From assembly GCA_009694865.1 (NCBI GenBank), contig SICD01000001.1, positions 403-64,402 on the forward strand: a stretch of 64,000 nt of DNA, given 5' to 3'. Position numbers and translations under genes: made by a program. The first letter of the stretch is position 1. Every line of letters starts with the position of its first letter. This document shows, piece after piece, positions 27,219 through 63,926 of the stretch. The notes below the pieces were generated by a model that worked only from the letters and a program-made list of their open reading frames with translations, did no database searches and had not been told where the DNA came from. The DNA comes from Candidatus Magasanikiibacteriota bacterium (lineage in GTDB: Bacteria; Patescibacteriota; Patescibacteriia; Magasanikbacterales; GWA2-37-8).

Positions 27219-28865
27219 TTATATCAAAGGCGTCCCCGTCATCTCTTTGGGCTGTGTAAGCCCCATAAGTTTTAAAACCGTCGGCGCGACATCCGCTAAA
27301 AATCCCACCGGCGGAAGCAAACTCAGATCCCCTTCCGGCGCGTCGCCACCTGGGCCGGCCTGACCGCGAAAATCAGCGCCGATGACGAGCAGGGGAACGG
27401 GATTGGTAGAGTGCTCTTTATCCATTTCACCAGTTTGCAAATTAATCACTTCTTCGGCATTGCCATGATCCGCTGTCATAATAACCACACCGCCAACCGC
27501 CAGTGTATGGCCTACAATATCGCCCAAACATTTATCAATGGTCTCACACGCGGCAATGGTGGCTTTGCGATCGCCGGTGTGGCCAACCATATCGGCATTG
27601 GCATAATTAATAACCACCAAATCAAACTTGCCGCTATCGATGGCTTTAATAGTTTTTTTTGTTACTTCGGACGCTGACATAGCTGGTACTTCGGCGTAAC
27701 TGGCCACATGCGGCGACGACACCAAAGCGCGCTCCTCGCCCGGAAAAGCTTCTTCAATTGTGCCATTCAAAAAAAATGTTACATGCGCGTATTTTTCCGT
27801 TTCCGCCGCGTGAAATTGCTTAAGACCGGCCAAACTAACGGCTTCAGCCAAACAATTACGCGCCACAATGGGCGCATAGGCCACTACCACCGGCAAATCT
27901 TTTTCATACTCCATCATGGTGACAAAAAATAACTTTTTTATGTCGCTGCGTTTAAATTTATCAAACCCGGGGAGTACAAAGGCTTTAGTGAGTTCGCGCG
28001 CGCGGTCGGGACGAAAATTAGCAAAAATAATAGCATCCCCATCAGTCACAGTCGCCACTGGCTTACCTGCCTCGCTCGCCTCGCTGGAGCTATGGCGAAG
28101 CGGGCCGGAGCCTTTGGCGGAGGCTGAATCACCATCCATAATCACGGTCGGCACAAATTCTTCATCATAATTTTTTTTCGCGTAGCTGGCTTTAATCGCC
28201 TCGGCGGGGCTAGTCGCGCTGCGTTCCGCTTTGCCTTCCGCCATTGCTTTGTAAGCCGCTTCAACTCGTTCCCAGCGGTTATCCCTATCCATGGCATAAA
28301 ACCGCCCCGAGAGCGAGGCGATCGCTCCAACTTTCAACTTTTTCAGCTTCGCTTCCAATTCTTTTACAAAACTTTCCCCGGCGCTATAAATACAGTCACG
28401 CCCATCTAAGATAACGTGGACAAAAACCTCTTTGCCTAAACCTTGCTTTTTACACAAATCCAAAAGTGCATAAAGGTGTTCATTGCTAGCGTGCACATTA
28501 CCGGAACTTAACATGGCAATAATATGGAGTTTGCTTTTATTCTTTTCCACGTGGGCAATCGCATCTAGAAAAGCCTTGTTCTTAAAAAATTCACCGCTCG
28601 ATATTTCTTGGTTAATGCGAGGACAGGATTGATAATAAACTCTACCCGCGCCAATATTAAGGTGCCCCACTTCCGAATTACCAATTTCACCAAATAAAAG
28701 ACCCACTTCGTTCCCCGAAGCGTGCAAGGTCATCGCCGGATACTCTTTAATATACGATTTAAAATTGGGCAACTTAGCCTGGGCAATAGCATTGCCATCG
28801 CTATCTGGCGCTACACCCCAACCGTCGCAGATGACAAGGGTAACTGGTTTGTAAGATTTACTCAT
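27219..28865 (-). CDS. gpmI: 2,3-bisphosphoglycerate-independent phosphoglycerate mutase (copy 1, 548 aa)
   Basis: iPGM motifs GNSEVGHLNIGAGRV and TADHGNAEE, with a metalloenzyme core. Confidence 0.85.
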   Translation of the reverse strand: MSKSYKPVTLVICDGWGVAPDSDGNAIAQAKLPNFKSYIKEYPAMTLHASGNEVGLLFGEIGNSEVGHLNIGAGRVYYQSCPRINQEISSGEFFKNKAFLDAIAHVEKNKSKLHIIAMLSSGNVHASNEHLYALLDLCKKQGLGKEVFVHVILDGRDCIYSAGESFVKELEAKLKKLKVGAIASLSGRFYAMDRDNRWERVEAAYKAMAEGKAERSATSPAEAIKASYAKKNYDEEFVPTVIMDGDSASAKGSGPLRHSSSEASEAGKPVATVTDGDAIIFANFRPDRARELTKAFVLPGFDKFKRSDIKKLFFVTMMEYEKDLPVVVAYAPIVARNCLAEAVSLAGLKQFHAAETEKYAHVTFFLNGTIEEAFPGEERALVSSPHVASYAEVPAMSASEVTKKTIKAIDSGKFDLVVINYANADMVGHTGDRKATIAACETIDKCLGDIVGHTLAVGGVVIMTADHGNAEEVINLQTGEMDKEHSTNPVPLLVIGADFRGQAGPGGDAPEGDLSLLPPVGFLADVAPTVLKLMGLTQPKEMTGTPLI

Positions 28866-28883
28866 AAAAAATCAAGATACGAT

Positions 28884-29067
28884 TGTCATTTCGAAGCCCC
28901 CTTCGCAGGGGGTGAGAAATCTCTGGCTCAATCACTTGTCATCCCGAGCGTAGTCGAGGGATCTCGCGTCGTTGGCGAGATTCCTCCACTTCGCTGCGCT
29001 CCGGTCGGAATGACAAACGACGGACAGAGATCCCTCGTCGGCCGCGAGGCCTCGCTCGGGATGACAG
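28884..29067. repeat. Composite or nested MITE family A element (about 185 bp) between the two gpmI paralogs
   Basis: tgtcatttcgaagcccccttcgcagggggtgag...cttgtcatcccgagcg...ggtcggaatgacaaacgacggacagagatccctcgtcgg...cgctcgggatgacag. It looks like two elements, one inside the other. Confidence 0.65.
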
Positions 29068-29070
29068 CAC

Positions 29071-30657
29071 TTACAGCAAGCTTCGTCCTGTCATTTCCTT
29101 CGGTTTCTTAATTCCCATTATTTTTAAAATCGTGGGAGACACGTCCGCCAGTTTGCCTTTTTTAAGGTTTCGAGATTTTAGCTTAAATTGTTTATGTACG
29201 GACGCAGGCGCTATAAACACAAATGGCACGGGATTTACCGAATGCTCCGTATCAACTTCGTCGGTCTTGAGGTTTACCATTTCTTCGGCATTACCATGAT
29301 CGGCGGTTATAACACATTGCCCTCCAGCCTTGAGGACACTCTGTGCCACGCGGTTAAGCTGTTTGTCAAGAATCGCAATCGCCTTTTCGGCGGCCGCAAT
29401 ATTCCCCGTGTGCCCCACCATGTCGGCATTGGCAAAATTAACCGCGATAAAATCATATTCCCGCGCTTCAATTGCTTTCACGGCGTAGGTGGCGATTTTA
29501 TCCGCTTCCATCGCCGGGTCAGTTTCAAAATCTTTCACGCGATCCGAAGCAATTTTTACCCACCGCTCATCGCCAAAATGCTGTTGGTAGCCGCCATTAA
29601 AAAAATAAGTGACGTGCGCGAACTTTTCTGATTCAGCGAGATATAATTGCCGGCGCGGACACAAAGTCTGTACCAAAGTATTAGGAATGTCACGACTCGG
29701 AAACGCTGTGAGTACACGCGGAAAATCCGGACCAAAATCCGCCATCGCCACAAACCGAGTATTTTTCGGCACAATTTTTCGATCAAACGTTCCGCCATTT
29801 TCCTTCTCAAACTGCGGATGCACAAACGCCTTCGTAATCTGCCGCGCCCGGTCACTGCGCAAATTAAAAAAGAAAATCGCGTCGTTACTTTTTATCGTCG
29901 CCACTGGTTTATTATTTTCAACAATCACCATGGGCGTAATAAACTCATCACTTTCACCAGAATTATACGCTTGCGTTAGTGCCTCTTCCGCGCTATTTGC
30001 CTGCTTACCTTTGCCTTCAACCATCGCCCGGTACGCCTTTTGTGTCCGGTGCCAAATTTTATTACGATCCATCCCGTATAACCGCCCCATCACCGTCGCA
30101 ATTTTCTCCGTGCCGTGAAAATGATTTTGTAAATGTTTAAGATGATGCGGCGCGTCGTGTTGACCAGAATCCCGCCCATCGGTAAATAAATGCAAATACA
30201 CTTTTTTAATTCCCTCCTGATGAATTAAACCCAAAAGCGCGAACAGGTGCTCCGGACAGGAATGCGCGCTGTTGTGATTCGAGAGCAATCCCATCAAATG
30301 CACCGCCGTTTTGTATTTTTTTACATGGTGCAGTGCTTCGTGAAACGCATTATTCTTAAAAAACGTACCGTCATTAATCGCATCGGTAATATACAGCGTA
30401 TCTTGTTTTACAACTCGCCCCGCCCCAATATTCAAATGCCCGGCTTCACTATTCCCCTCCTGCCCGCGCGGCAATCCGACGGCGACACCGCTCGCCTCAA
30501 GAAGAGTGTGGGGATATTTTTTCCACCAACCAAAAAAATTCGGCGCCGTTTTGGGCGTAATAGCGTTGCCCTTTTGTTTTGGGTCAGCCATGCCAAAGCC
30601 GTCGAGGATAATGAGGATGGTGATTGGTGATTTTGTAGGCATAATATTTCGTAACAA
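29071..30657 (-). CDS. gpmI: 2,3-bisphosphoglycerate-independent phosphoglycerate mutase (copy 2, a divergent paralog of 528 aa)
   Basis: GNSEAGHLNIGAGRV, ITADHGNAEE. Collinear with copy 1 but clearly diverged. Confidence 0.8.
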   Translation of the reverse strand: MLRNIMPTKSPITILIILDGFGMADPKQKGNAITPKTAPNFFGWWKKYPHTLLEASGVAVGLPRGQEGNSEAGHLNIGAGRVVKQDTLYITDAINDGTFFKNNAFHEALHHVKKYKTAVHLMGLLSNHNSAHSCPEHLFALLGLIHQEGIKKVYLHLFTDGRDSGQHDAPHHLKHLQNHFHGTEKIATVMGRLYGMDRNKIWHRTQKAYRAMVEGKGKQANSAEEALTQAYNSGESDEFITPMVIVENNKPVATIKSNDAIFFFNLRSDRARQITKAFVHPQFEKENGGTFDRKIVPKNTRFVAMADFGPDFPRVLTAFPSRDIPNTLVQTLCPRRQLYLAESEKFAHVTYFFNGGYQQHFGDERWVKIASDRVKDFETDPAMEADKIATYAVKAIEAREYDFIAVNFANADMVGHTGNIAAAEKAIAILDKQLNRVAQSVLKAGGQCVITADHGNAEEMVNLKTDEVDTEHSVNPVPFVFIAPASVHKQFKLKSRNLKKGKLADVSPTILKIMGIKKPKEMTGRSLL

Positions 30658-30731
30658 AGATCATCGGCATCCCCTCCTTACCAAAAAGGGCGAGGGGTGA
30701 TTTGCCGTTGCGCGCGCTGCCGAGTGAGCAC

Positions 30732-42412: not shown

Positions 42413-43714
42413 TTAGAGTACTTTTGCAAAAACACACTTTAAATACTCCCCTTCCGTAAACGCCGCCAGTTCCGGGTGGTCAATGCCGTGGGTGAATGTT
42501 TCCAGTACTTGCACAGTCCTTCCGGCCCGAGCTGCCGCCTCCGACAACATAAACCTAAAATCCTCCAGCCGCACGTGAGCCGAGCATGAGCAGGTCAAAA
42601 GAATGCCCCCTGGCGGCAAAATGCGTAAAGCCATCTCATTAATTTTCCTGTATCCTTGTAACCCTTCTTTTATTTTGTGCCGATCTTTAACAAACGCTGG
42701 TGGGTCTAAAATAATCACATCAAATTCGCCCGACTGACAATCCGTTAGATATTCCTTCACATCCGCCAAAATAAATTCGCATTTTGATTCGTCCAATTTA
42801 TTTAATTTCACATTCTCTTCGGCCAGCTCAAGTGCTGGTTGCGAAGCATCCACGCTCACCACACTCTTAGCGCCCGCGCCGAGGGCATAAACTGAAAAAC
42901 CGCCGGTATAAGAAAAACAATTCAACACTTTTTTATTCATTACATATTTTTGTAGAGCCAAACGCTTATCCCGCTGATCCAAGAAAAACCCCGTTTTCTG
43001 TCCACCAATAATATCGACCCAAAACAAATAGCCGTTCTCTTTTATCTTTACTCTCTCCGGCACTTCGCCAAAAAGCAAACCGACTTTTTCGTTGTCATTC
43101 CGAGCGAAGTCGAGGAATCCCTTGGTTTGGCCAGGAGGGATTTCTCCACTGCGCTTCGCTTCGGTCGAAATGACAGAATGTGCGCTATGCCCCGTACGAC
43201 GTCCAACATCCGACCGCTCATAAATCCCTTTTGGTTTTAAAATCTTAACGAGCGCTTTCACAATCAAATCTTTCCAATGTTCGATCCCCGGATTATGAAA
43301 CTGAACGGAAAGATACTCGGCGTATTTATCAACAATTAGCCCCGGCAACAAATCATTTTCCGCGTGGATTAATCGATACGCGTTCGTCTGTGTCCCCCTG
43401 CCCGAGGGGGACTGTAGGGGGGAGGGAGTGTTGGCGACAAAATCTTTGCGCAACTCATAAGCCCGTTTGAGGCGTTTCTCAAAAAATTCCGCGTCAACCA
43501 TCTCCTCTTTATCCCAACTCCAAATCCGCACCGCGATTTGCGAATACGAATTAAAAAAACCCTGCGCCAAAAAATTGCCTTGCTCATCGTGGAGTACTAC
43601 CGGCTCGCCGCTCGTGAGTCCTTCCGGAATATTTTTCAACGCGCCCGAAAACACCCACGGATGCCTTCCGCGAATTGGTCCAACACGTTCTTTTTTAACT
43701 ATTAGTGTAACCAT
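42413..43714 (-). CDS. rlmI: PUA-domain class I SAM-dependent rRNA (m5C) methyltransferase, RlmI-like, carrying in-frame repeat insertions
   Basis: N-terminal PUA-like VKKERVGPIRGRHPWVFSG and a SAM-methyltransferase core (...DPPAF...). MITE 43092-43176 and a GC hairpin at 43391-43410 are read through in-frame. Confidence 0.7.
   Translation of the reverse strand: MVTLIVKKERVGPIRGRHPWVFSGALKNIPEGLTSGEPVVLHDEQGNFLAQGFFNSYSQIAVRIWSWDKEEMVDAEFFEKRLKRAYELRKDFVANTPSPLQSPSGRGTQTNAYRLIHAENDLLPGLIVDKYAEYLSVQFHNPGIEHWKDLIVKALVKILKPKGIYERSDVGRRTGHSAHSVISTEAKRSGEIPPGQTKGFLDFARNDNEKVGLLFGEVPERVKIKENGYLFWVDIIGGQKTGFFLDQRDKRLALQKYVMNKKVLNCFSYTGGFSVYALGAGAKSVVSVDASQPALELAEENVKLNKLDESKCEFILADVKEYLTDCQSGEFDVIILDPPAFVKDRHKIKEGLQGYRKINEMALRILPPGGILLTCSCSAHVRLEDFRFMLSEAAARAGRTVQVLETFTHGIDHPELAAFTEGEYLKCVFAKVL
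43092..43176. repeat. MITE family A copy inserted in-frame within rlmI
   Basis: ttgtcattccgagcgaagtcgaggaatcccttggtttggccaggagggatttctccactgcgcttcgcttcggtcgaaatgacag. Confidence 0.65.
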
Positions 43715-47958: not shown

Positions 47959-49083
47959 ATGCCAACTATCAAAATTTTACAAAAACGATACCATAGCCAA
48001 ATAAACGAGCTTGACTTTAGCATTCTTCTCGCTCACGCTATTAACAAACCGCGAGAATTCCTCTACGCTCACCCCAACTTTCCGCTTTCCGCTTTCGCCT
48101 ACGCGCGCCTAAGGTATTTTTTGTTTCACTACAAACGCGGCTATTCCGTTGCCGCCATTACCCACCATAAAGAATTTTACGGGTTAAATTTTTATGTGAA
48201 CAAAGACACCCTCATCCCCCGCCCCGAAACTGAACTGCTGGTTGAAGAAGCCATTGCGGCAATTAAAACCCCCCCCTCGCGGGGGGGCTCGGGGGGGTGT
48301 TGGCTCATCGACGTTGGCACTGGGAGCGGGTGTATTCCAATCACGATCGCCACACACCTCAATTGTCATCCTGAGCGCAGCGAAGGATCTCTGTCTCAAT
48401 CGGGAGCGGACAGAGATTCTTCGATCGCTAAGCTCCCTCAGAATGACAGTTTAAAAATATTTGCGACGGACATTTCTAAATCAGCGCTTCGCGTCGCCCG
48501 TAAAAACGCTCGAATACAAAATGTATCCATAAACTTTTTACACGGTAACCTCCTCGAACCGTTCGTAAAACAGATCAACACCGCAACACATCAACACCGC
48601 AACACTTTAACAATTGAACAATTGAACAATCAAACTATTATAATAACAGCAAATCTTCCGTATCTTACTCCGATTCAATTCGAAGCCGAACCAAGTATCC
48701 AACGCGAACCTCGCTCCGCCTTGGTTGCGGAAAATAGCGGCCTCGCATTGTACGAAAAATTGTTACAACAAATTTCTCATCTTTCTCCGTCTGTCATTTC
48801 GACGACACGTTCGCTACGCTCAGTGCAGGCTCCGGAGGAATCTCTGGCTCAATCGGCAAAACGGACAGAGATTCCCCTACGAGGGATCGCGAGACCTCGT
48901 CGGCCGCGAGACCTCACTCGGAATGACAAACTAAAAATGATCATTTTTTTCGAAATCGATCCTTCCCAAACACAAAAAATATCCTCTCTCGTAAAAACCT
49001 ATCTTCCTTTGGCCTCTATCGAAATAAAAACCGACCTCGCGGGGCGAGATCGGGTGGTGAAAATTAACCTTACGTTACCTTAG
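47959..49083 (+). CDS. prmC: Release-factor glutamine N5-methyltransferase (PrmC/HemK) carrying three in-frame repeat insertions
   Basis: NLPY variant of NPPY (ITANLPYLTP) and a SAM-binding motif IDVGTGSGCI. The product is about 90 aa longer than typical PrmC. The extra segments coincide with hairpin 48271-48287, MITE 48364-48449 and MITE 48792-48929. Confidence 0.75.
   Translation: MPTIKILQKRYHSQINELDFSILLAHAINKPREFLYAHPNFPLSAFAYARLRYFLFHYKRGYSVAAITHHKEFYGLNFYVNKDTLIPRPETELLVEEAIAAIKTPPSRGGSGGCWLIDVGTGSGCIPITIATHLNCHPERSEGSLSQSGADRDSSIAKLPQNDSLKIFATDISKSALRVARKNARIQNVSINFLHGNLLEPFVKQINTATHQHRNTLTIEQLNNQTIIITANLPYLTPIQFEAEPSIQREPRSALVAENSGLALYEKLLQQISHLSPSVISTTRSLRSVQAPEESLAQSAKRTEIPLRGIARPRRPRDLTRNDKLKMIIFFEIDPSQTQKISSLVKTYLPLASIEIKTDLAGRDRVVKINLTLP
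48364..48449. repeat. MITE subfamily A2 copy in-frame within prmC
   Basis: attgtcatcctgagcgcagcgaaggatctctgtctcaatcgggagcggacagagattcttcgatcgctaagctccctcagaatgacag. Confidence 0.65.
48792..48929. repeat. MITE family A copy in-frame within prmC
   Basis: ctgtcatttcgacgacacgttcgctacgctcagtgcaggctccggaggaatctctggctcaatcgg...gggatcgcgagacctcgtcggccgcgagacctcactcggaatgacaa. Confidence 0.65.
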
Positions 49084-53240: not shown

Positions 53241-53286
53241 AAGAGTATAAATACTCTTGACGTCACTTACTAGTATAGACTATAGT
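53241..53286 (+). promoter_or_regulatory. Perfect 18-bp palindrome (aagagtataaatactctt) overlapping a putative promoter (TTGACG-N18-TATAGT) of cassette C. Candidate operator.
   Basis: Palindrome 53241-53258, -35 ttgacg at 53257-53262, -10 tatagt at 53281-53286. Confidence 0.4.
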
Positions 53287-53316
53287 GAACCTGTCGTCAA
53301 ACCAAGGAGGCTCCCG

Positions 53317-53835
53317 ATGAGTCGTGAAATCCCGCACCAGATGATGCTCTTGGCCTTTCTCTCGCTTTTCCGAGCGCTCCGCGTTCAGCGCCGCTTCTCG
53401 GTAGAACAGCGGGAGACGCTGGTCACGGCGCTGCCCCAACCGTACTCGCTCGGATCGGCTCCGATGGATCTGCAAATCGCCTGGAACATGCTGGGGCGGA
53501 CCCTCGACCTCCCTCTGGGAGAAACCGCCCTCAACAACGAACGCGGCCTCGCGAAGAAGGCTCCGCTCCGACCCACGAATTGGGATCTGATCGCCGCACT
53601 CGCGTCGCTGTTCCGTGTCCTCAAGGCAACACGAGCGTTCCGGCGAGAGAAACTTCATGAGCTCCGATGCCAGCTGCTGGAACCGCTCGGACGCGAGAGC
53701 CGGTACATGCCACCCGCCACAGCCTGGGAGACGATCAGGCTCGGACTCTTGCATGGCTCCTTTGAGATGCTCGGACTCTCGCTCAAGCACTTCAAGAAGA
53801 GGCATGCGGCTCCACAAAAGACGAAAACGGGGTGA
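53317..53835 (+). CDS. Hypothetical helical protein (172 aa) on high-G+C cassette C
   Basis: aaggagg at 53304-53310 precedes the ATG at 53317 (MSREIPHQMMLLAFLSLFRAL...). Visibly G+C-rich. A hairpin and a T-rich region follow the stop. The antisense ORFs 53263..53853, 53385..53624 and 53655..53843 are rejected. Confidence 0.5.
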   Translation: MSREIPHQMMLLAFLSLFRALRVQRRFSVEQRETLVTALPQPYSLGSAPMDLQIAWNMLGRTLDLPLGETALNNERGLAKKAPLRPTNWDLIAALASLFRVLKATRAFRREKLHELRCQLLEPLGRESRYMPPATAWETIRLGLLHGSFEMLGLSLKHFKKRHAAPQKTKTG

Positions 53836-53944
53836 ACCCCCAAGGAGAGACAACCAAAGGACGGCGAGCGACTCCGCTCGCCGTCCCAGCTTCTAAAAAA
53901 TAAACCAGTCGCTCACAAGTGACTGATTTTTATTTCTCCCGCCA

Positions 53945-55468
53945 TCAGTGGGATACCGCTCGCCGCGGGACAATTTGTCTCGTTCTTCGTTTTCTATGAA
54001 ACGTAATCGCGAACCGGTGCGCTTCGTCGCGAACCTGAATTAATAATCTCTGATGCCGAGTAACCCACGCAATAAATTCCGGACTCTTATCTCCTAAAAT
54101 TATATCGTTACGTTTGCGCTCTCTCCCTTTGGCAATACCGACGATTGGAATTCTGCGCACAGACGCATTGCTATGCGTCTCTACAAAGTTCCGCGCCCGA
54201 CTCACTTGCGGCCGTCCCCCGTCAATCAAAATGACATTTGGGAACTGCCATTCCGCGTGCTTAAACCGGCGCTCCAAAACTTCTGCCAATGAATCAACAT
54301 CACTCTGCCCAAAAACAGTTTTAATAATAAACTTTCGATACTCCGATTTCACCGGACCCTCCTCATTAAACACCACCATACTCCCCACTTTTTCGGAAGC
54401 ACCTAAGTTGGAAATATCATAACCTTCGATTCGGAGCTTCCTCTCCCCCCGAGCCCCCTCTCTGGCAGAGGGGGACACACCGCCTCCCCCTCTTTCTAAG
54501 AGGGGGCGTGGGGGAGTTGCCGTCGCCGTGTCAACAAAACTCTTATTCAAAAGCGCAATATCCTGAATTCTACGCAGAGAGTGTAATTGGTCACGCAGTC
54601 TCGCCGCGTCTTCAAACCGCTCGTCTTTCCCCGCCCGCTTCATCTCCATTTCAAAAATTTTAATAACCTGCTTTTTCCGACCTGACAAAAATGTCACCAG
54701 CGGCCGAATGATCTGCCGTCGATACTCGGCTGAACTAATCTCACCCGTGCACACCCCCGGACACCACCCCATTTGGCGATACAGGCACACTCGACTTCCA
54801 GGCACACAATTACTAAACCGAAACATCCGCCGCAACAACTTCATCGCCGCCTTCGTATTCAACCCCGGATACGGCCCAAAAACATAGGCAAAGGCGTCAT
54901 CACGAGCGAGCTTAAGGCGAGCGTCGTGATCCCCTTGCTGTAAAAACTTATTTAGTTCGGGGGATTGCGACGTCGCTGCGCTCCTCGCAATGACGCTGTA
55001 CTCCCGCTCCCGCATTGTCAAAACTTTTGGATATTCGTCTTTGCTGACGAGAATATAATTCCAACTCTTATCATCCTTTCCATCCACATTATACTTGGGC
55101 TGGAATTTTTTAATGTACTCCGCTTCCAAAATAATCGCCTCAAGCGCCGACTCGGTCTCCTTCCACTTAATATCTACCACCTCATGAATCATTCCCTCAA
55201 TCGGACGACTCACAACCGCACTGTCATTCTGAGCGGAGGCTCGCGCCGTAGTCGAAGAATCCCTCTCACCGTGGTAAGGGGATTTCTCCACTTCGTTCCT
55301 TTGTCGCTGTGGTCGGAATGACAATCGAAAATACGACCGCACCCGACTCCGGAGCGACGTCGCCTTGCCCACATACACCAATTCTTTTTGGGAATTATAA
55401 AAAAGATATACCCCCGGCGAATCTGGCAAACTAACTAAAATTTTACCGACACCATCTGCCTTATCCAT
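53945..55468 (-). CDS. uvrC: Excinuclease ABC subunit C, with in-frame repeat insertions
   Basis: GIY-YIG N-terminus (PGVYLFYNSQKELVYVGKA) and a UvrC RNaseH-like/endonuclease C-terminal region. The hairpin cluster 54425-54520, the A3 half-element 54959-54995 and MITE 55221-55324 are all translated in-frame. Confidence 0.85.
   Translation of the reverse strand: MDKADGVGKILVSLPDSPGVYLFYNSQKELVYVGKATSLRSRVRSYFRLSFRPQRQRNEVEKSPYHGERDSSTTARASAQNDSAVVSRPIEGMIHEVVDIKWKETESALEAIILEAEYIKKFQPKYNVDGKDDKSWNYILVSKDEYPKVLTMREREYSVIARSAATSQSPELNKFLQQGDHDARLKLARDDAFAYVFGPYPGLNTKAAMKLLRRMFRFSNCVPGSRVCLYRQMGWCPGVCTGEISSAEYRRQIIRPLVTFLSGRKKQVIKIFEMEMKRAGKDERFEDAARLRDQLHSLRRIQDIALLNKSFVDTATATPPRPLLERGGGGVSPSAREGARGERKLRIEGYDISNLGASEKVGSMVVFNEEGPVKSEYRKFIIKTVFGQSDVDSLAEVLERRFKHAEWQFPNVILIDGGRPQVSRARNFVETHSNASVRRIPIVGIAKGRERKRNDIILGDKSPEFIAWVTRHQRLLIQVRDEAHRFAITFHRKRRTRQIVPRRAVSH
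54959..54995. repeat. Half copy of MITE subfamily A3 in-frame within uvrC
   Basis: gggggattgcgacgtcgctgcgctcctcgcaatgacgc. Confidence 0.55.
55221..55324. repeat. MITE family A copy in-frame within uvrC
   Basis: ctgtcattctgagcggaggctcgcgccgtagtcgaagaatccctctcaccgtggtaaggggatttctccacttcgttcctttgtcgctgtggtcggaatgacaa. Confidence 0.65.
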
Positions 55469-55552
55469 AAAATTATTGCCTCTAAAAATAACTTATGCTA
55501 TAATTATCTTTGTTCGTGGCGACACCGTCGCGATATTTAATTATTATACACT

Positions 55553-56143
55553 ATGACCAAACACTATCGGCTCATGGGTTTAGTTACCACTTCGCTCGGG
55601 GCAGCATTACTGTTGGGCGGCGGAGGCTGCGGCAGCACACCTATCACCACCCTAACCACAACCAAAGAAGAAACCAAAGCTCCTGTCGTTGCCATGAGCA
55701 CCTTTGCCAACTCTAAATATCATTTCGAAATTCAATATCCCAGCGACTGGATGATGAACGACAAAGACGCTGCAACCGCGGTTAAATTATTCTCTCCCCT
55801 CGAAAGTGCCGCTGACACCTTTCGCGAAAACATAAATGTCATCGAGAAAGACTACTCCCAGTATACCATCACACTCGACCAATATTTTCAACTTAACCTA
55901 AAGGATATCACCGCCGCGCCTAACTTTAAACAAGTGGAATCTAAAAATACTACCATTGCCGGCCAACCAGCGAAAAAATTGGTTTTCATGGCCACCCTCG
56001 ATGACCAAAACTTGGAATTTCTCCAATATTACATCTTAAAAGACAAACGAACCTACATTATAACCTGCACCACCCCACCCGATACCTTCAAAAAATTCAC
56101 TCCCACCTGTGAAAAACTTATTGGGACATTCAAACTGAAATAA
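55553..56143 (+). CDS. Lipoprotein (196 aa), hypothetical
   Basis: Lipobox LLGGGGCGS after a signal peptide. It is followed by a terminator at 56178-56207. Confidence 0.6.
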   Translation: MTKHYRLMGLVTTSLGAALLLGGGGCGSTPITTLTTTKEETKAPVVAMSTFANSKYHFEIQYPSDWMMNDKDAATAVKLFSPLESAADTFRENINVIEKDYSQYTITLDQYFQLNLKDITAAPNFKQVESKNTTIAGQPAKKLVFMATLDDQNLEFLQYYILKDKRTYIITCTTPPDTFKKFTPTCEKLIGTFKLK

Positions 56144-56177
56144 TCACTTCCAGAAAACAACCCCAACAACCCCTTCC

Positions 56178-56207
56178 GATCCCGACTCCGTCGGGGTCGG
56201 TTTTTTT
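56178..56207 (+). terminator. Rho-independent terminator after the lipoprotein gene
   Basis: cccgactccgtcggggtcgg followed by ttttttt. Confidence 0.55.
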
Positions 56208-56291
56208 ATGTGCTTTTTTTATGTGCTTTACAAACCCCTTCCAATTTGCTAATTTATAAGTACTGTCCAAAACGACAGTGAGGAAAAAACC

Positions 56292-56531
56292 ATGATATCT
56301 TGCCGATTGTCGGGTACGGTTGCTCGGCTGCTCAAGCCGGGCGAAAACTTTCACCTGGGGCACGACTGCTACACGCATGCCACCGCACCGCCCGCCTGGA
56401 GTGCGGGCGAGGTGTTCGGCGAATGCAAGAATCTGTGGGCCACCCCGCTCGACGGCGGAGAGATGAAACAGATCTCCGCGGAAACGTCCGTCCACATCAT
56501 CCCGCCCCCCAAGGTCAAAATCGGCCAGTAG
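56292..56531 (+). CDS. Small hypothetical protein (79 aa) on a high-G+C island (cassette D)
   Basis: gtgaggaaaaaacc precedes the ATG at 56292. G+C-rich (MISCRLSGTVARLLKPGENFHLGHDCYTHATAPPAWSAGEVFGECKNLW...). A hairpin plus T-run lies at about 56549-56624. Confidence 0.45.
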   Translation: MISCRLSGTVARLLKPGENFHLGHDCYTHATAPPAWSAGEVFGECKNLWATPLDGGEMKQISAETSVHIIPPPKVKIGQ

Positions 56532-56666
56532 CCGCCGGGGGAGCAATCAGCATCCGCTCCCTGTTACCCCGATAATTAATTGTCGGAATAACAAGGAGGT
56601 ATCCGCGGATGCTTTTTGTTTTATTTAACTTAAAACGCCTTGCCTCACCCTTCGAGAACGACGGGG

Positions 56667-56695
56667 TTGACAAATAGCGACTCTCTCATTAGAAT
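56667..56695 (+). promoter_or_regulatory. Sigma70-like promoter TTGACA-N17-TAGAAT upstream of cassette E
   Basis: ttgaca at 56667-56672, a 17-nt spacer, tagaat at 56690-56695. Confidence 0.45.
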
Positions 56696-56758
56696 TACCC
56701 GCATCAGTAACCTGTTCCGCCGACGGTCGGCGGCCAACGTTCTGAAAGGAGCAATGCG

Positions 56759-56932
56759 ATGTCGAGATTAATCGTGTTCGGTTCCGGAGTGGCCCTGATC
56801 ATCAGCGCCGCGATCGTGGTCATGATCAAGGAGGTCCTCAAAAAGAAGACGGGAGAGGGACTGTACTGGCTCGCTGCCGTGCTGATCCTCGCCGGAGCGG
56901 CCCTCGCCTTTCCCGCCTTATACGACCCATGA
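56759..56932 (+). CDS. Small two-TM membrane protein (57 aa) on a high-G+C island (cassette E). It is not in the ORF track because it is under 60 aa.
   Basis: aaggag precedes the ATG at 56759. Hand translation gives MSRLIVFGSGVALIISAAIVVMIKEVLKKKTGEGLYWLAAVLILAGAALAFPALYDP, ending at the stop at 56930-56932. G+C-rich. The antisense ORF 56704..56940 is rejected. Confidence 0.4.
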   Translation: MSRLIVFGSGVALIISAAIVVMIKEVLKKKTGEGLYWLAAVLILAGAALAFPALYDP

Positions 56933-57158
56933 CCGCCCACCAGCCCCGCCGTGCGCCCTGCGCGCCGGCGGGCTTCCTATTTTAAATGATCTTAAATATA
57001 TGCACTGCTGTACCATTACACGAGTACACATATCTCTCAACTATTTTTATTAGCACCACCCCGGGGTCTGGGGGTCCAGCTGTTTGAGCGTCCTGCCATA
57101 CACAATAACTTTAGCCACATGACGACTAAGCGAGTTTTGGACCCCCAGCAGTTTTTTG

Positions 57159-57186
57159 GATACTTTTTTGCTGCCAAAAAAGTATC
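57159..57186. terminator. Bidirectional intrinsic terminator (perfect 12-bp inverted repeat with T-runs on both strands) between cassette E and the convergent uvrA
   Basis: gatacttttttg-ctgc-caaaaaagtatc. Confidence 0.5.
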
Positions 57187-57260
57187 ATCGCAATTATTTC
57201 AAAACCCGCTTCAAATACTGCCCCGCCTTCGCTAAAGCTTCGGCGGGCAAGCCTGTAAAA

Positions 57261-60092
57261 CTATTTAAGCACACGTTTAAGGTATTGCCCGGTGAAAGAA
57301 GCGGATTTCTTAGCAACTTCTTCCGGTGTCCCGCTGGCAACAACCTCACCCCCCTTATCCCCCCCCTCCGGCCCCAAATCAATAATCCAATCCGCGCATT
57401 TAATCACATCCAAATTATGTTCAATCACCATCACGGTATTCCCTTGTCCAACAAGTCGTTGGAGCACATCAAGCAACTTCCGCACATCATCATAATGCAA
57501 ACCCGTCGTCGGCTCATCCAGCAAATACAACGTCTTAGTCGTGCCGTGTTTTGCCAACTCCCGGCTAAGTTTAATCCGCTGTGCTTCCCCGCCCGACAGC
57601 GTCGTTGCCGATTGTCCCAAGGTTAAATAATCCAACCCCACCTCATTTAACATTTTCAATTTATCTTCCACCAGCGGAATATCTTTAAAAAACTCTTCCG
57701 CGTCTTCAATTGTCATGTTCAAAACATCCGAAATATTCTTGTCTTTATAATGCACCTGTAAAATTTCGTTGGTAAACCGTTTGCCGCGGCACACATCACA
57801 AATAATTTGCACGCTCGGCAAGAAATGCATCTCAATTTCTAAATTTCCTCGGCCTTCACAGTTTTCACAACGCCCACCTGGGACGTTAAAGCTAAATTTA
57901 CCAGATTTGTACCCCCGAATTTTTGCCTCTGGAGTTGACGCGAATAATTCCCGAATAAAATCGAAGGCTTTCGTATACGTCGCCGGGTTACTACGCGGCG
58001 TGCGCCCAATCGCGCTCTGGTCAATCGTAATCATCCGATCAATATATTCGGTCCCGGTGATTTCCAAATGCTTGCCGACCGATTTATTAAGACGAAATAA
58101 ACGATTGTTAATCGAGCGATGCAAAATATCGTGCATTAAAGTAGATTTTCCCGATCCGGAAACACCGGTAAGGCATACAAACCGTCGCAGAGGAATCTCC
58201 ACGGTAATATTTTTCAAATTATGTTCCGTCGCTTTCTTAATTTTAATTTTCGGCGTCGCCCCATCTACTTTCCGTCGCTTTTCGGGTACAGGAACTTTTA
58301 ATTCGCCGCGGAGGTATTGGCCGGTGAGAGATTTTGCTGGGTCGCCTTGGGTAGCGGCAAATACGGACTGCCCCCTCGAGGGGGCCTCACGGGGGTGTAA
58401 GACCGCTGCGTGGCCGTTTCGACTTCGCTCAAGGCCACCCTGAGCAAGGTCGAATTGGTGGCGGTCGTCGATTGAGCGACGCAAAGGACTCACACCCCCC
58501 CGAACGCCCTGCGGGGCGCCCCCCTCGAGGGGGGATTTGGCGAGCATCACCTCTAACGGCCCCGAAAACACCACTTCCCCACCATGCTTCCCCGCCCCCG
58601 GTCCAATGTCCACAATCCAATCACTCACCATAATCGTATCCTCATCATGCTCCACAACAATAATGGTATTCCCCACATCACACAAATTCCGGAGCGTCCT
58701 CACTAGTCGGTCGTTATCCCGTTGATGCAACCCAATCGTTGGTTCATCCAGTACATACAAAGCACCAACCAGTCGCGTGCCCACTTGTGATGCTAACCGA
58801 ATACGCTGTGCCTCACCTCCCGACAGAGTGCCCGCTTTCCGATTAAGTGTTAGATAATGCAAACCAACATCAAACATGAACTGCAAACGATTGCAGACTT
58901 CCTTCAATACCGCCCCGGCAATTTCGCGTTGCGTTTCCGGCAATTCCATATCCACGCTCGCAAAAAATTCCCGCGCTTCGGCAATCGATAAATTTGTTAC
59001 TTCCCAAATATTTTTATCCACCACTTTCACGCTCAAGGCCGTGGCGTTTAACCGCTTGCCTTTACACACCGGACACTCTTCTTCACTGAATAATTCTTTA
59101 GTGCCCAAACCAGTACACGCTTGGCAATAACCATAAGGACTGTTAAAACTAAACAACCGCGGTTCAATTTCCGGAAAACTAAAACCATCTTTAGGGCAAG
59201 AATATTCGGTGCTATAAATATGTTCCTCGCCGCTGGGGTACAAGACCGTACAAAGGCCGTTGGAAAGTTCCACCGCATTGGCTACTGCTTCGCCCAAACG
59301 CTGTTCAACGTCTTTCTTTGTCATCCCGACAGAGGCTCGCGCCGACGAGGTCGAAGATCCTCCGAGGAGGAGATCTCTGTCTATCGTTTGGTGAGCCAGA
59401 GATTTCTCCTTCGCCGTCGAAATGACAGACAACGCTGCCATTGGAATTTTATCAACAATTACTTCAATAGTATGTTTATCATTTTTTTCTAAAATAACCC
59501 GTTCACGCAAACTTTTTATATTGCCATCCACTCGCACCTCTAAATATCCGGAATTATAAACATCATACAACATCTGATAATATTCGCCTTTGCGTCCGCG
59601 TACTACCGGAGAAAATAAAATTAATTCAGGAGCCTTTTTTGTTTTCCCACCATCTTGTTTTAGTGCTTTTTTAATTTTTTCTATCATCTGATCGGTCGTC
59701 ATTTTCTGAATTTTCGTGCCACAAAGCGGACAATGCGGCTCGCCTACTCGGGCAAATAAAACACGGAGATAATCATAAATCTCCGTGATCGTCGCCACGG
59801 TGGAACGCGGATTCGCACTGTGCGCTTTTTGATCGATCGAAATTGCCGGCGACAACCCTTCAATTTCATCCACATCCGGCTTTTGCATGCCACCCAAAAA
59901 CTGCCGCGCGTAAGCCGACAAACTTTCAATATACCGCCGCTGACCTTCCGCAAAAATCGTATCAAAAGCCAAGCTCGATTTTCCCGAACCTGATAATCCT
60001 GTAAACACAATCATTTTATTCCGCGGCAGTTCCAAATTAATATTCTTGAGATTGTGTTCTCGCGCCCCTTTGATTATAATTTTGTCTTGCAT
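57261..60092 (-). CDS. uvrA: Excinuclease ABC subunit A, with in-frame repeat insertions
   Basis: The start [20 protein letters not shown] is the canonical UvrA N-terminus (ATG at 60090-60092). It has two ABC ATPase modules and zinc-finger Cys clusters. MITE 59318-59428 and the two ccccctcgaggggg hairpin regions at 58371-58384 and 58519-58534 are translated in-frame. Confidence 0.9.
59318..59428. repeat. MITE family A copy in-frame within uvrA
   Basis: ttgtcatcccgacagaggctcgcgccgacgaggtcgaagatcctccgaggaggagatctctgtctatcgtttggtgagccagagatttctccttcgccgtcgaaatgacag. Confidence 0.65.
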
Positions 60093-60100
60093 GTGATTCG

Positions 60101-60182
60101 ACAGAATCATGCCGAGCAATGTCCTTTGAAGCTCGGCGGATTTAACAGAATCATGCCGAGCAATGTCCTTTGAAGCTCGACG
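60101..60182. repeat. Tandem duplication (2 copies of 38 bp, period 44) of a hairpin-containing 38-mer in the uvrA 5' leader
   Basis: acagaatcatgccgagcaatgtcctttgaagctcg[g/a]cg at 60101-60138 and 60145-60182. Each copy contains the stem gccgagc/gctcggc. Confidence 0.65.
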
Positions 60183-60323
60183 AATTAGTGGACAGTGTAA
60201 TAGCGTTTAAAAAAATTGCGGCTTACAACGGCGGCACTATAGCATTGTCGCCATTACCACTTTTCTTGATAATTGACAAACCAGTCAGCCATAGATACAC
60301 TTATGGCCAAGGAGGCAACAACC

Positions 60324-60515
60324 ATGTCGGGGAACGAGCGTGAAGCCCGCCGCGGCGGGCAAATCTGTTTTTCTCTGGGTGCTTTGCTCGGCGGACTCTG
60401 TGGCTGGGCCTTCAGCGGCCAGCCGCTCGAGGGGCTAGCGATCGGCCTCAGTATCGGTCTGTTCTTCGGAGGGTTTATCTACCTCCGTGACCGCCGGCCA
60501 CCGCCGGCCATGTGA
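60324..60515 (+). CDS. Small glycine-zipper membrane protein (63 aa), GlsB/YeaQ/YmgE-like (transglycosylase-associated protein family), on high-G+C cassette F
   Basis: ggagg at 60311-60315 precedes the ATG at 60324 (MSGNEREARRGGQICFSLGALLGGLCGWAFSGQPLEGLAIGLSIGLFFGGFIYLR...). G+C-rich. A terminator hairpin at 60583-60600 plus a T-run overlaps the 3' end of uvrB. An alternative ATG lies at 60303. Confidence 0.45.
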   Translation: MSGNEREARRGGQICFSLGALLGGLCGWAFSGQPLEGLAIGLSIGLFFGGFIYLRDRRPPPAM

Positions 60516-60570
60516 GGAGCCGTGTCCCACCTCGTGCCGGGCTCCGCCATCGCGCGGACCCGGCACACTT

Positions 60571-62931
60571 CTACCCATTGCCCCCGACCACTCGGTCGGG
60601 TTTTTTATTAGAGAGCGCTTTGATTTTCGGCGTTCCCGAAACTTTCACCCTCGTCCGCAATTCCCGCAACTCATCCCTGAGTATCGCCGCCAACTCAAAC
60701 TCTAACCCCTTCGCCGCCTCCCGCATCTGTTTCTCTTTATCTTTAATAATTTCCTCCATCGGCCGCGCATCGCCGAGCAAATCCAAATCAAGAGTTGAAA
60801 TCGCTCCGGTGCGGCCTTTTAGCCCTCTCCCGGCTCTCGCGCCTTTTGAGCCTTTAGCATTTCCCCCATCTCGACTAACACCAAACTCTTCGAGAATATT
60901 CCTAATTGTTTTTTCAATCGTCTTCGGCGTAATGCCATGTTCTTTATTATACGCCAACTGAATTGTGCGACGACGGTCTGTTTCTTTAATCGCTCGTTCC
61001 ATGGAACCCGTCATATTATCCGCATACAACACTACTTGCCCATTCACATTCCGCGCCGCCCGGCCAATCGTCTGAATGAGTGACGTTTCACTGCGCAAAA
61101 ATCCTTCTTTATCCGCGTCTAAAATTGCCACCAGTGATACCTCGGGCATGTCAAGCCCTTCGCGCAACAAGTTAACCCCCACCAACACATCATGTTTACC
61201 CAGCCGCAAATCCATAATAATCTCAATCCGTTCCAACGTGAGCACATCACTATGAATATACGCCACTTTAATTTTTTTCTCTTTTAAATACTCCGTTAAA
61301 TCCTCCGCCATTTTTTTCGTGAGGGTGGTCACGAGCACTCGCTCACCCTGCTTAATCCGTTCGTCGATGCGGATAAGGAGGTCCTCGACTTGCGACTTTC
61401 CTAAATTGTCATTCTGAGCCCCGTCAGGGGTGGCCGAAGAATCTTCCTTTTTTCTATTCGGAAGATCCTTCGCTCCGCTCAGGATGACATTTTTATTTTT
61501 ACCGGTGATGGGCCTCACCACCACCTCTGGATCAATCAACCCCGTCGGCCGCACCACCTGCTCCACAACTTGCTCACTTTCCTTAATTTCATAGGGTGTT
61601 GGCGTAGCAGACACGTACACAAGCTGTCCCACACGCTCTTCAAATTCCTTATACTGAAGCGGCCGATTATCACGCGCACTGGGAAGACGAAAACCATGCT
61701 CAACCAGAGTATCTTTGCGTGCCCGGTCGCCATTATACATCCCTCTGATTTGAGGAACGGTAACGTGGGACTCGTCGATGATGGTGAGGAACCCCCGAGA
61801 CATCCCCTCACCCGACCTCTCCCGCGGGGAGAGGAGGCGCTTCCCCTCGCCCCGCGGGAGAGGGACGGAGGGTGAGGGTTCGGTCGCACTATACCTAAAA
61901 TAATCCAACAACGTAAACGGCGGCTCCCCTTCCGCGCGCCCTTCAAAATGCCGCGAATAATTTTCAATGCCGTTGCAATACCCAATATTTTTTATCATCT
62001 CCAAATCATACGCCACTCGCCGCTTTAACCGTTCATATTCCAAAACTTTCCCCTGCCGTTCAAACACCGCGAGTTGTTCGTCGAGCTCGCTTTTGATTCT
62101 CGCAAACGCCTGTTGACGAGAGGCCTCACTCACCACATAATGCTTCGCCGGAAAAAACCAAACATCAGACTCGCGCCTGATGTTTGTCCTGAGGCCGCGC
62201 ACGGCCGAAGGACCCCTCTCATCAACATCCGAACTAGCAAGAACCGCCCGAGTAACACGATCTAATTTTTCAATTCGGTCGATATGGCTCGAGATCTCGA
62301 ATCGATAAATCGCATCCTCATTCACCGGCATTATTTCAAACACCTGCCCGTGCAACCGAAAACTGCCCCGCTTTAGTTCGCTGTTCGTCCGCTCAAATTG
62401 CATCGCGACCAATTGTTCCAACATCGCCCGCCGATCAAGTTCATCCCCCCGTCGCAAATGCAAAACAATTTTTTCATATTCTTTAGGAGACCCCAAACCG
62501 TAAATCGCCGAAACCGATGCCACAATAATAACATCCCGCCGCGTCAACAACGCCTGCGTACACGCATGCCGCAACCGATCAATCTCCTCGTTCACCTGCG
62601 CCTCTTTTTCAATATAAGTATCACTCCCCGGCATATACGCCTCGGGCTGGTAGTAATCATAATAACTAACAAAATATTCTACCGCGTTATCAGGAAAAAA
62701 TTCCCGAAATTCATTACACAACTGCGCCGCCAAAGTTTTGTTATGCGCAATAACAAGCGTTGGCATTTGCACCTGTTGAATCACATTCGCCATCGTAAAG
62801 GTCTTTCCCGAACCGGTTACGCCAAGCAATGTCTGCTTCCGCATTCCCTGCTCCAAACCCAAAACAAGCCTTTCAATGGCTTTGGGCTGGTCTCCATCTG
62901 GCTGGTATTTTGATTTTATTTTGAATTGCAT
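60571..62931 (-). CDS. uvrB: Excinuclease ABC subunit B, with in-frame repeat insertions
   Basis: The start [22 protein letters not shown] is the UvrB N-terminus (ATG at 62929-62931). Helicase motifs GVTGSGKT and the C-terminal UVR domain are present. MITE 61406-61490 and the family-B element 61803-61877 are read through in-frame (...[26 protein letters not shown]...). Confidence 0.9.
61406..61490. repeat. MITE subfamily A2 copy in-frame within uvrB
   Basis: ttgtcattctgagccccgtcaggggtggccgaagaatcttccttttttctattcggaagatccttcgctccgctcaggatgacat. Confidence 0.65.
61803..61877. repeat. Palindromic element family B copy in-frame within uvrB
   Basis: tcccctcacccgacctctcccgcggggagaggaggcgcttcccctcgccccgcgggagagggacggagggtgaggg. 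Nearly identical to 6747-6824. Confidence 0.65.
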
Positions 62932-62972: not shown

Positions 62973-63056
62973 CTGTCATCCTGAGTCGGAGCGAAGGATC
63001 TAGTTCGATCAAAATGGCTTACCGACTAGATTCTTCATTTCATTCAGAATGACAGC
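62973..63056. repeat. MITE subfamily A2 copy (intergenic, between uvrB and xerC/D). A partial A3 terminus (tgtgtcattgcgagg) lies at about 62937-62951.
   Basis: ctgtcatcctgagtcggagcgaaggatctagttcgatcaaaatggcttaccgactagattcttcatttcattcagaatgacag. Confidence 0.65.
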
Positions 63057-63086: not shown

Positions 63087-63926
63087 TCACACATCCAACG
63101 GACTCACAATCCCCGCGATCGCCGTACTCGCCACATGCGTATAAATTTGCGTCGTCTGCAATTTGGCATGGCCCAACAATTCCTGAATATACCTAATATC
63201 CGTCCCCGCTTCCAAAAGATGCGTAGCGAAACTATGCCGCAACGTATGCGGCGAAACATTTTTTTGTATCCCCGCCTTCTGCGCCGCCGCACCCACAACT
63301 TTCTGAATCGTCGCTTCCGTTAGCCGACTACCTCTACCATTGGTAAAAAGATAATCATCCGCCATTTTTAATTTTTGTTGCTTTAACAAAATTTCTTTCA
63401 ACGCTTTCGGAATAATTGTCTGCCGATCCTTTTTCCCTTTCCCCTGATACACCCGCAAAATCATCCTGTCCAAATCCACATCTCGCATTTTAATGTGCGT
63501 CAACTCACTAACCCGCACTCCCGTGCCATATAAAAGAGAAATAATACAATTGTGTTTAGGGTTTTCCGTCACCTCAATAATTTTGGCCACCTCCGCCTTA
63601 GACAAAACATTGGGCAAATGCTTTTCTTTTTTCGCGCGTGGCAAATTTACAAAAAACCTGCGATACAAAATCTTACCAAAATAAAATAACAGCGCGCTGT
63701 ACGCTGTATTTATAGTAGAAGCAGAAAAATCTTCGCTACTCAAATACTCCAAATATGCCCTCACGTCAGCCTGCGAAACGCTCCGCGCATCTTTATTAGC
63801 AAAACGCAAAAACTCTCCCACATAATGTAAGTAACTTTTAATGGTTTTAACACTGAACCCTCGCAAAACCATCTCCTGCTTAAGCAAAATAACCGGATCC
63901 CTACTTGGCCGATAATGTGTATCCAT
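63087..63926 (-). CDS. Tyrosine site-specific recombinase, XerC/XerD family
   Basis: N-terminal SAM-like core-binding domain. C-terminal catalytic motifs ...HTLRHSFATHLLEAGTDIRYIQELLGHAKLQTTQIYTHV. Confidence 0.8.
   Translation of the reverse strand: MDTHYRPSRDPVILLKQEMVLRGFSVKTIKSYLHYVGEFLRFANKDARSVSQADVRAYLEYLSSEDFSASTINTAYSALLFYFGKILYRRFFVNLPRAKKEKHLPNVLSKAEVAKIIEVTENPKHNCIISLLYGTGVRVSELTHIKMRDVDLDRMILRVYQGKGKKDRQTIIPKALKEILLKQQKLKMADDYLFTNGRGSRLTEATIQKVVGAAAQKAGIQKNVSPHTLRHSFATHLLEAGTDIRYIQELLGHAKLQTTQIYTHVASTAIAGIVSPLDV

Follow-up and report, generated by a model that had tools for sequence, protein, structure and literature searches.

Palindromic repeats have been described inside bacterial protein-coding genes, and two described systems come closest to the case reported here: (i) the Rickettsia palindromic elements (RPEs); and (ii) the CGTC-tagged repetitive extragenic palindromes (REPs). 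The former are palindromic repeats of ~100-150 bp that occur both in intergenic regions and, in-frame, in unrelated housekeeping genes (Ogata et al., 2000, 2002, as cited in PMC10969869 and PMC1779305). The superfamily of CGTC-tagged REPs includes Rickettsia RPE-4 and RPE-6 as well as Neisseria dRS3. Its members carry the tag CGTC, often TGTC (or CCTC), an 8-9-bp stem that starts with AT, a loop of 4-5 nt and a 3-nt unpaired tail with the consensus CCA; they are mostly arranged as inverted (head-to-head) dimers, and no dedicated transposase is known for them (Di Nocera et al., 2013, BMC Genomics 14:522, PMC3733652). According to the same paper, REPs lie inside uvrB of R. conorii, uvrA of Thioalkalivibrio and both uvrA genes of Opitutus terrae, and REP-decorated proteins are often DNA-repair proteins. 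Here we deal with palindromic repeats inside uvrA, uvrB and uvrC of a bacterium of the candidate phyla radiation (CPR), in a stretch of 64,000 nt (hereafter, the window) of contig SICD01000001.1 from a metagenome-assembled genome (MAG) of Candidatus Magasanikiibacteriota (GCA_009694865.1).

The three genes are encoded on the minus strand, each as an uninterrupted open reading frame (ORF): uvrC at 53945-55468 (507 aa), uvrA at 57261-60092 (943 aa), and uvrB at 60571-62931 (786 aa). Their products match solved UvrC, UvrA and UvrB chains over the full length and contain the diagnostic Pfam domains; the uvrB product is identical to the NCBI-annotated UvrB, and the uvrC product is labelled 'hypothetical protein' in NCBI. 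Across the three genes, there are at least eight in-frame inserts of 20-71 aa that correspond to palindromic repeats. In our reading, to which we give a probability of about 0.8, these inserts are non-autonomous, hairpin-forming repeats of the REP/RPE type that are tolerated in loops and translated together with the host gene.

The repeats of the window belong to several families. Family A is recognised by its terminus TGTCATYCYGA, which is present 37 times in the window versus 2.7 expected (37 was reached in none of 100 shuffles), and its termini pair into ~15 elements of 79-141 bp. A family-A element is an inverted pair of tagged stem-loop units, with the tags pointing outward, that flank a variable central hairpin; the central stem covaries in an alignment of nine window copies. 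Each end is laid out as TGTC, ATYCY, loop, RGRAT and CYC. Of the 30 family-A termini in the window, most start with the tag TGTC, and the six uvr termini are all among these; the stems open with AT after TGTC, and the closing arm ends in ...AT. Most termini have a closing stem of 5-6 bp and a loop of 9-23 nt, and the tails are mostly CTC, CCC, CTT or CTA (CCA in the copy of a related locus, L004). Family B has two copies in the window, both inside ORFs (one in uvrB, the other at 6748-6827). Finally, the G/C-rich hairpin pattern CCCCCT N0-12 AGGGGG gives 8 matches in the window versus 0.04 expected. The repeat inserts are GC-rich and are also present intergenically in the window; actually, genic and intergenic copies are of the same families, with shared termini and architecture.

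The inserts of uvrC are (i) a family-A element at 55222-55323 (residues 50-83, SFRPQRQ...AQNDS; z = -3.8 for the fold against shuffles); (ii) a second, degenerate element at ~54897-54997 (residues ~159-191, VIARSAATSQSPE...ARDD; z = -4.9), which starts with the tag CGTC, has an 8/9-bp stem and a 10-nt loop, and reads CGTC-ATTGCGAGG...CGTCGCAAT-CCC; and (iii) a double G/C-rich hairpin module (CCCCCTC...GAGGGGG, twice) at 54443-54524 (residues ~318-342; -60 kcal/mol, z = -5.0). In uvrA, a family-A element occupies 59319-59427 (residues ~222-258, SVISTAKEK...ASVGMT; z = -3.0) and a composite insert extends over ~58335-58547 (71 aa by alignment to solved UvrA; -71 kcal/mol, z = -3.4). The latter is bracketed by two CCCCCTCGAGGGGG hairpins (58371-84 and 58520-33), contains a further TTCGACCTTGCTCAGGG... 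hairpin, and has its recognisable repeat-derived peptide at 58368-58535. Those of uvrB are a family-A element at 61407-61489 (residues 481-509, ...AQNDN; z = -7.2), a family-B element (CCTCTCCCGCGGGGAGAGG, twice) at ~61795-61885 (residues ~350-378; -66 kcal/mol, z = -5.5), and a small hairpin insert in domain 2 (GGTCCT..GGCCG..CGGCC..AGGAC) at 62179-62238 (residues 232-251, 20 aa). Seven of the eight fold far better than their shuffles (z between -3.0 and -7.2, at -36 to -71 kcal/mol); the domain-2 insert of uvrB, with z = 0.1, is not significant on its own. The C-terminal linker of uvrB has an extra stretch of only 8 aa.

A first-pass annotation of this DNA had placed the family-A inserts of the three genes within 1-2 nt of these coordinates, had found the family-B element of uvrB, and had rightly described the frames as open throughout. 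Its list was nevertheless incomplete, as it missed the domain-2 insert of uvrB, and its 'half element' of uvrC (54959-54995) turns out to be part of the complete degenerate element. The inserts are in frame as described, with a size range wider than the 25-50 aa proposed. Likewise, the hairpin module that had been assigned to all three genes is present in uvrA (the two bracketing hairpins) and uvrC (54454-74 and 54486-506), and the CCCCCT N0-12 AGGGGG pattern has no match in uvrB, where, instead, the family-B element contributes related CCTCTCCCGCGGGGAGAGG stems and the family-A copy contains a small CCCCGTCAGGGG hairpin. The sliding-window minimum free energy scan of the window is too noisy for a family-independent listing of inserts.

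The same element is present in 31 IMG/VR contigs of 45-71% GC and, in consequence, the family is not confined to CPR bacteria. In those contigs it is mostly intergenic and sometimes forms tandem arrays with variable central loops. Two arrays of the TGTCATTCTGAG...CTCAGGATGACA element (L088, 8545-8970; L100, 9002-9430) have 4-5 units with a period of ~80-90 bp, the arms being near-constant and the central loops, of 12-16 nt, variable. The peptides VILSEAKDL... and ...LRFAQDD/SLRMT are familiar as spurious 'hypothetical proteins' in several phyla. Such a distribution bears on the idea that the extra segments are just ordinary lineage-specific loop expansions or assembly artefacts. The sequence does come from a metagenome-assembled genome, and loops of the homologues do vary in length; but the genic segments have the same termini and architecture as the intergenic copies of the window and those in unrelated contigs, independent assemblies from other studies have related elements at the same sites, and an artefact would not keep the frame every time. 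That idea is therefore exceedingly improbable.

When the proteins are aligned to solved structures, the inserts fall between secondary-structure elements or in linkers. In UvrB, the domain-2 insert corresponds to the tip of a beta-hairpin, the family-B insert lies between reference residues 329 and 331, just before the strand of motif II (DESH), and the family-A insert is located where the two helicase lobes join, within the loop that connects strand 469-473 to helix 514-527. In UvrA, the UvrB-binding domain has the family-A insert on its C-terminal edge (between 9gxk_A residues 229 and 233), and the composite insert replaces the 5-residue connection between the nucleotide-binding domains NBD-I and NBD-II (9gxk_A residues 601/607). 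In UvrC, the first insert lies in the GIY-YIG domain, between helix 39-51 (RVRSYF) and helix 89-96, and the double hairpin module in an inter-domain linker. AlphaFold models of UvrB and UvrC, built on homologue alignments, have confident cores, and the UvrB model has a TM-score of ~0.8 to solved UvrB structures. Segments with a predicted local distance difference test (pLDDT) score below 50 coincide with the inserts at 239-248, 352-378 and 478-510 of UvrB and at 61-84, 179-188 and 305-341 of UvrC, each of them flanked by predicted helices or strands. Other low-confidence segments of UvrB are 687-713 (pLDDT below 50), which is mostly native C-terminal linker, and ~96-106, 462-466 and the C-terminal tail, which are unrelated to inserts.

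Comparison with orthologues reveals relatives in which the same positions are empty or filled by other repeat families. The comparison covers, in addition to homologous proteins, 80 related loci/genomes (L001-L080) that were picked with the insert-bearing UvrA as query, a choice that may have introduced bias. The 120 closest UvrB homologues have 667-812 aa; inserts of at least 8 aa are found at the family-B site in 34 of them and at the family-A site in 45, and the peptides at these hot spots stem from many repeat families (VILSEA...SLRMT, VIASEAKQS..., PLPRGEG..., NPTQPPLGEG...). At these two UvrB sites, the same position is filled by different families in different genomes. The hot spots of UvrC follow core positions 47-52, 128-132, 166-169 and 267 (the site of the second uvrC element has inserts in 27/120 homologues), and those of UvrA follow core positions 151, 225 and 493. 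At the DNA level, the uvrA family-A site is empty in L001, L045 and L002 and holds different variants in L046 and L004, and one UvrA codon has received different family-A variants in three lineages, one of them in another reading frame. The uvrB family-A site is empty in L006, L016 and L014. The domain-2 insert of uvrB is shared with L006, with compensatory changes in the stem; L046 and others lack it. A second, divergent uvrA paralogue in L018 (1495-4410, 44% identity) has an in-frame extra segment of ~107 aa with a family-A pair.

The uvr genes of GTDB species representatives (188 genes in the set) contain 137 inserts of 10 aa or more, which have a GC content of 0.546 versus 0.451 in the gene cores, and fold at -0.297 versus -0.177 kcal/mol per nt (p = 1e-12). 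All three uvr genes have inserts in 8 of the 39 genomes in which the three are complete. Furthermore, insert loads correlate between uvr genes (rho = 0.33-0.48), which points to an effect at the level of the genome, and the genome of the window has the highest load of the 39 (209 aa versus 121 in the next one).

Indirect evidence on the fate of the inserts comes from the reading frame. The window has six family-A copies within long ORFs, all of them in frame and free of stops in the frame used, whereas the intergenic family-A copies have stops in most frames. Among ~190 uvr genes in the 80 related genomes, no frame broken by an element was found. Two candidates for a broken frame were discarded: the uvrB of L022 (8160-8460) has three frameshifts that are apparently A-rich homopolymer errors in a long-read MAG, unrelated to the elements, and the 'second frame' of L018 belongs to the paralogous uvrA mentioned above. 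These observations bear on whether the hairpin segments could be absent from the mature protein, either excised from the mRNA in an intron-like manner or bypassed by the ribosome (T4 gene 60 and the yeast-mitochondrial 'byp' elements being examples), that is, on the removal by an unknown mechanism that the first-pass annotation had allowed for. The inserts form very stable RNA hairpins, and mobile GC-rich inserts bypassed by the ribosome are a known precedent. But removal by splicing or bypass imposes no constraint on frame or stops, so two thirds of the insertions should shift the frame, and none does. Moreover, the inserts are too short for group I/II introns or inteins, and no intron or ribozyme family matches them: Rfam has no match at gathering score in the whole window, and in the uvr region just four generic hairpin matches (three miRNA-precursor models and one antisense-RNA model), far below gathering scores. 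A tRNA/tmRNA search found none. Removal is thus disfavoured, and highly improbable; most likely, the inserts are translated as disordered loops, as suggested by frame conservation, purifying selection and structure prediction.

As far as purifying selection is concerned, the gene cores have ratios of non-synonymous to synonymous substitution rates (dN/dS) of 0.05-0.14 against their nearest relatives and, to judge from these values, are under purifying selection. In agreement with the first-pass annotation, which had conserved motifs retained in frame, all the invariant residues of the UvrB and UvrC homologue alignments are kept in the window proteins. In the lineage, the baseline UvrC has ~415 aa and stops directly behind its RNase-H-like endonuclease domain, without the C-terminal (HhH)2 domain, and the baseline UvrA has ~850-860 aa, without ~95 aa that correspond to the classical UvrA insertion domain. 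Such absences, together with an insert load that is the highest among 39 relatives, could be taken as signs of pseudogene decay of the uvr genes, in a reduced genome that tolerates the insertions because excision repair is dispensable. However, both domain losses are common to the whole lineage (L001-L080) and not caused by the repeats; the three ORFs are full length, with the invariant residues and low core dN/dS just described; and the same elements are also found in prmC, in an rRNA methylase gene and probably in a phosphoglycerate mutase gene. Pseudogene decay is, in consequence, very unlikely.

Actually, the repeats are not specific to Uvr proteins. In the window, family-A elements are found in-frame in an RlmI-like methyltransferase gene (43093-43175, SVISTEAKRSGE...FARNDN) and twice in prmC (48364-48448, CHPERSEGS...PQNDS; 48792-48928, SVISTTRSL...LTRNDK), and a nitroreductase-like gene contains, also in frame, the family-B copy at 6748-6827, the sole other one in the window. 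The last residues and the stop of this nitroreductase-like ORF (…AVILKDK, then stop) come from a family-A terminus at 7547-7568, which indicates that repeats can also remodel C-termini. Two tandem paralogous genes for cofactor-independent phosphoglycerate mutase (iPGM; 27219-28871 and 29071-30660) have nested family-A elements between them (28884-29066). The first paralogue contains a ~20-aa extra Ser/Ala/Gly-rich segment (…SASAKGSGPLRHSSSEASEAG…) that interrupts the Pfam iPGM_N match, at the place of a strong hairpin (28031-28155); one of the two iPGM genes probably carries a repeat insert. In the clade, homologues of valyl-tRNA synthetase (ValRS) have repeat-derived inserts at two hot spots, and the insert rate per sequence per 100 core residues is 0.096 for ValRS, 0.121 for UvrB and 0.197 for UvrC. 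The first-pass annotation was struck by the presence of the elements in all three subunits of one repair complex; the three are hit indeed, but other genes of the window, 8 of 39 relatives, ValRS and the published REPs make this less special.

The question then arises as to whether the inserts have been exapted, with the loops or the mRNA hairpins acting as modulators of excision repair, or whether the uvr genes are specifically targeted. Either would explain a cross-phylum association of tagged palindromes with uvrABC; the REP study noted that decorated proteins are often involved in DNA repair, excinuclease subunits among them (Di Nocera et al., 2013, PMC3733652). In the same direction point the compensatory changes that keep the stem of the uvrB domain-2 insert, the fact that uvr genes, with ~12% of the coding sequence, hold 3/6 of the ORF-internal copies of the window, and the number of family-A pairs in the 80 loci, 16 in uvr genes versus 3 in neighbouring long ORFs, that is, a density around ten-fold higher. 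Nevertheless, the presence, family, frame and sequence of the inserts vary among close relatives, many of which have none, and the encoded peptides are not conserved. A family-agnostic count of perfect-stem hairpins yields no uvr enrichment (0.074 versus 0.073 per kb), in a search that detects just one of the at least eight known inserts; insert rates of ValRS are comparable; and the 80 loci were selected by an insert-bearing UvrA. For the last three reasons, enrichment in uvr genes is not claimed, and it must be added that only the uvr genes are syntenic across the 80 loci. Exaptation or specific targeting is, all in all, quite unlikely, and we are similarly sceptical that uvr is preferentially targeted, or insertions selected there, across Rickettsia, Opitutus, Thioalkalivibrio and many CPR genomes, the last of which have insertions recurring at the same codons. 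If it were true, mRNA hairpins might tune the expression of excision repair, or altered UvrABC might favour the persistence of hairpin elements.

Returning to tolerated and translated REP/RPE-type repeats, the following course of events can be proposed. The repeats would spread via a trans-acting activity that leaves no target-site duplication (none was detected at the flanks of 15 copies, just a Y...R extension of the palindrome), and most surviving copies are intergenic. A genic copy would persist only if (i) it keeps the frame; (ii) it has no stop in that frame; and (iii) it sits in a loop or an inter-domain linker. Such a filter would explain what the comparison among relatives shows, namely that the same few permissive sites of UvrA, UvrB and UvrC have been hit repeatedly, by various families, in various frames and in various lineages. 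Retained copies would be transcribed and translated with the host gene, giving disordered loops of 20-71 aa, rich in Ser, Arg, Gly, Pro and Glu, and leaving the catalytic core intact. Hairpin-mediated precise loss, or replacement by other copies, could then yield the presence/absence pattern seen among relatives. The insertions are thus probably neutral or slightly deleterious passengers, and not functional parts of the excinuclease.

Several points weigh against this proposal. Recurrence at identical codons could reflect target preference, and not selection alone. The ten-fold density in uvr genes is not obviously predicted by pure neutral tolerance. The uvrB domain-2 and uvrA family-A inserts lie in or next to the domains through which UvrA and UvrB contact each other, and hence some functional cost is possible. 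We infer translation of the inserts from sequence and structure prediction, and mRNA hairpins of -40 to -70 kcal/mol might impede it. Finally, Pfam scans of most long ORFs found no transposase in the 64-kb window, a tyrosine recombinase being the only mobility-type gene found there.

That recombinase gene, of the phage-integrase family, is at 63087-63926, immediately upstream of uvrB. Between them lies an intergenic family-A copy (62974-63054), just upstream of the uvrB start, which is open in frame, so that the mechanically called uvrB ORF extends to 63012. The uvrA flanks (56150-57260 and 60120-60570) are unusually long intergenic stretches for a compact genome, GC-rich and with strong hairpins and small ORFs; a predicted membrane peptide of ~57 aa starts from 56760, and a membrane-like, Gly-rich ORF of 80 aa is found on the opposite strand at 60273-60515. 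Downstream of uvrC, the GC-rich region 53251-53892 can be read as a long ORF on either strand (192-196 aa, or 195 and 210 codons from stop to stop), and neither ORF has a Pfam match. The plus-strand product has an internal duplication (LLAFLSLFRALRVQRRF / LIAALASLFRVLKATRAF) and is preceded by a promoter-like TTGACG...TATAGT.

The significance of these inserts goes beyond one genome. In-frame repeat insertion is, to judge from these results, common in a clade of CPR/Patescibacteria, where intergenic space is scarce, and several repeat families have independently hit the same permissive loops of conserved enzymes, thus marking, by natural experiment, the sites at which UvrA, UvrB and UvrC tolerate insertions. 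This suggests a way in which proteins encoded by reduced genomes may acquire disordered loops. It is also a warning for annotation, as repeat-derived peptides inflate protein lengths and seed spurious homology.

As to known systems, CGTC-tagged REPs, compared by their published description, share with the elements reported here the tag, the AT-starting stem and the copies in uvrA and uvrB. The short C-rich tails, mostly other than CCA, and the inverted pairs with outward tags resemble the tails and dimers of those REPs. One copy, the uvrA insert of L004 (TGTC-ATTCCCGC-GCCG-GCGGGAAT-CCA), fits the published description, and is the sole one to fit it in stem and loop. By contrast, most family-A monomers have a 5-6-bp stem and a 9-23-nt loop instead of 8-9 bp and 4-5 nt, family-A dimers have an extra variable central hairpin, and the host is a CPR bacterium. 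The likeness to Rickettsia palindromic elements put forward by the first-pass annotation is borne out in that tag, stem and tail are laid out as in the superfamily of RPE-4 and RPE-6, and it may reflect real relatedness. In both cases, the protein fold is predicted to accommodate the insertion, and the elements proliferate in a lineage-specific manner; the differences are that several unrelated families co-occur here, with up to three or four inserts per gene, and in another host lineage. Besides, Rickettsia palindromic elements are described as encoding one conserved peptide per family, whereas the reading frame of one and the same family varies here (VILS.., CHSE.., SFRP..) and, therefore, there is no single conserved element-encoded peptide.

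Other systems are more distant. Miniature inverted-repeat transposable elements (Correia/NEMIS, ERIC, RUP, Nezha) are likewise small, with terminal inverted repeats and many copies, non-coding on their own and occasionally fused in-frame, but here there is no target-site duplication at the 15 copies and no related autonomous insertion sequence (IS) in the window. GTAG REPs and REPINs with their REP-associated tyrosine transposases (RAYTs) differ in their termini, which here are TGTC/CGTC and not GTAG, and a Y1 transposase of the IS200/IS605-like type is absent from the Pfam matches of the window ORFs. The coding palindromes of Nematomorpha mitochondria (PMC6649704) are also strong inverted repeats in functional protein-coding genes, but both of their arms encode conserved regions, while the inserts here are extra and variable; and bypass elements (T4 gene 60, 'byps') are also mobile GC-rich inserts within functional coding genes, but they break the frame, which the uvr inserts do not. 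Our literature search did not find a description of in-frame palindromic repeats in CPR bacteria, and novelty is limited by the fact that tagged REPs in uvrA and uvrB are already published. In any case, what the window contains is a known phenomenon, namely RPE-like in-frame palindromic insertion, found in a host lineage new to it and at an unusually heavy load.

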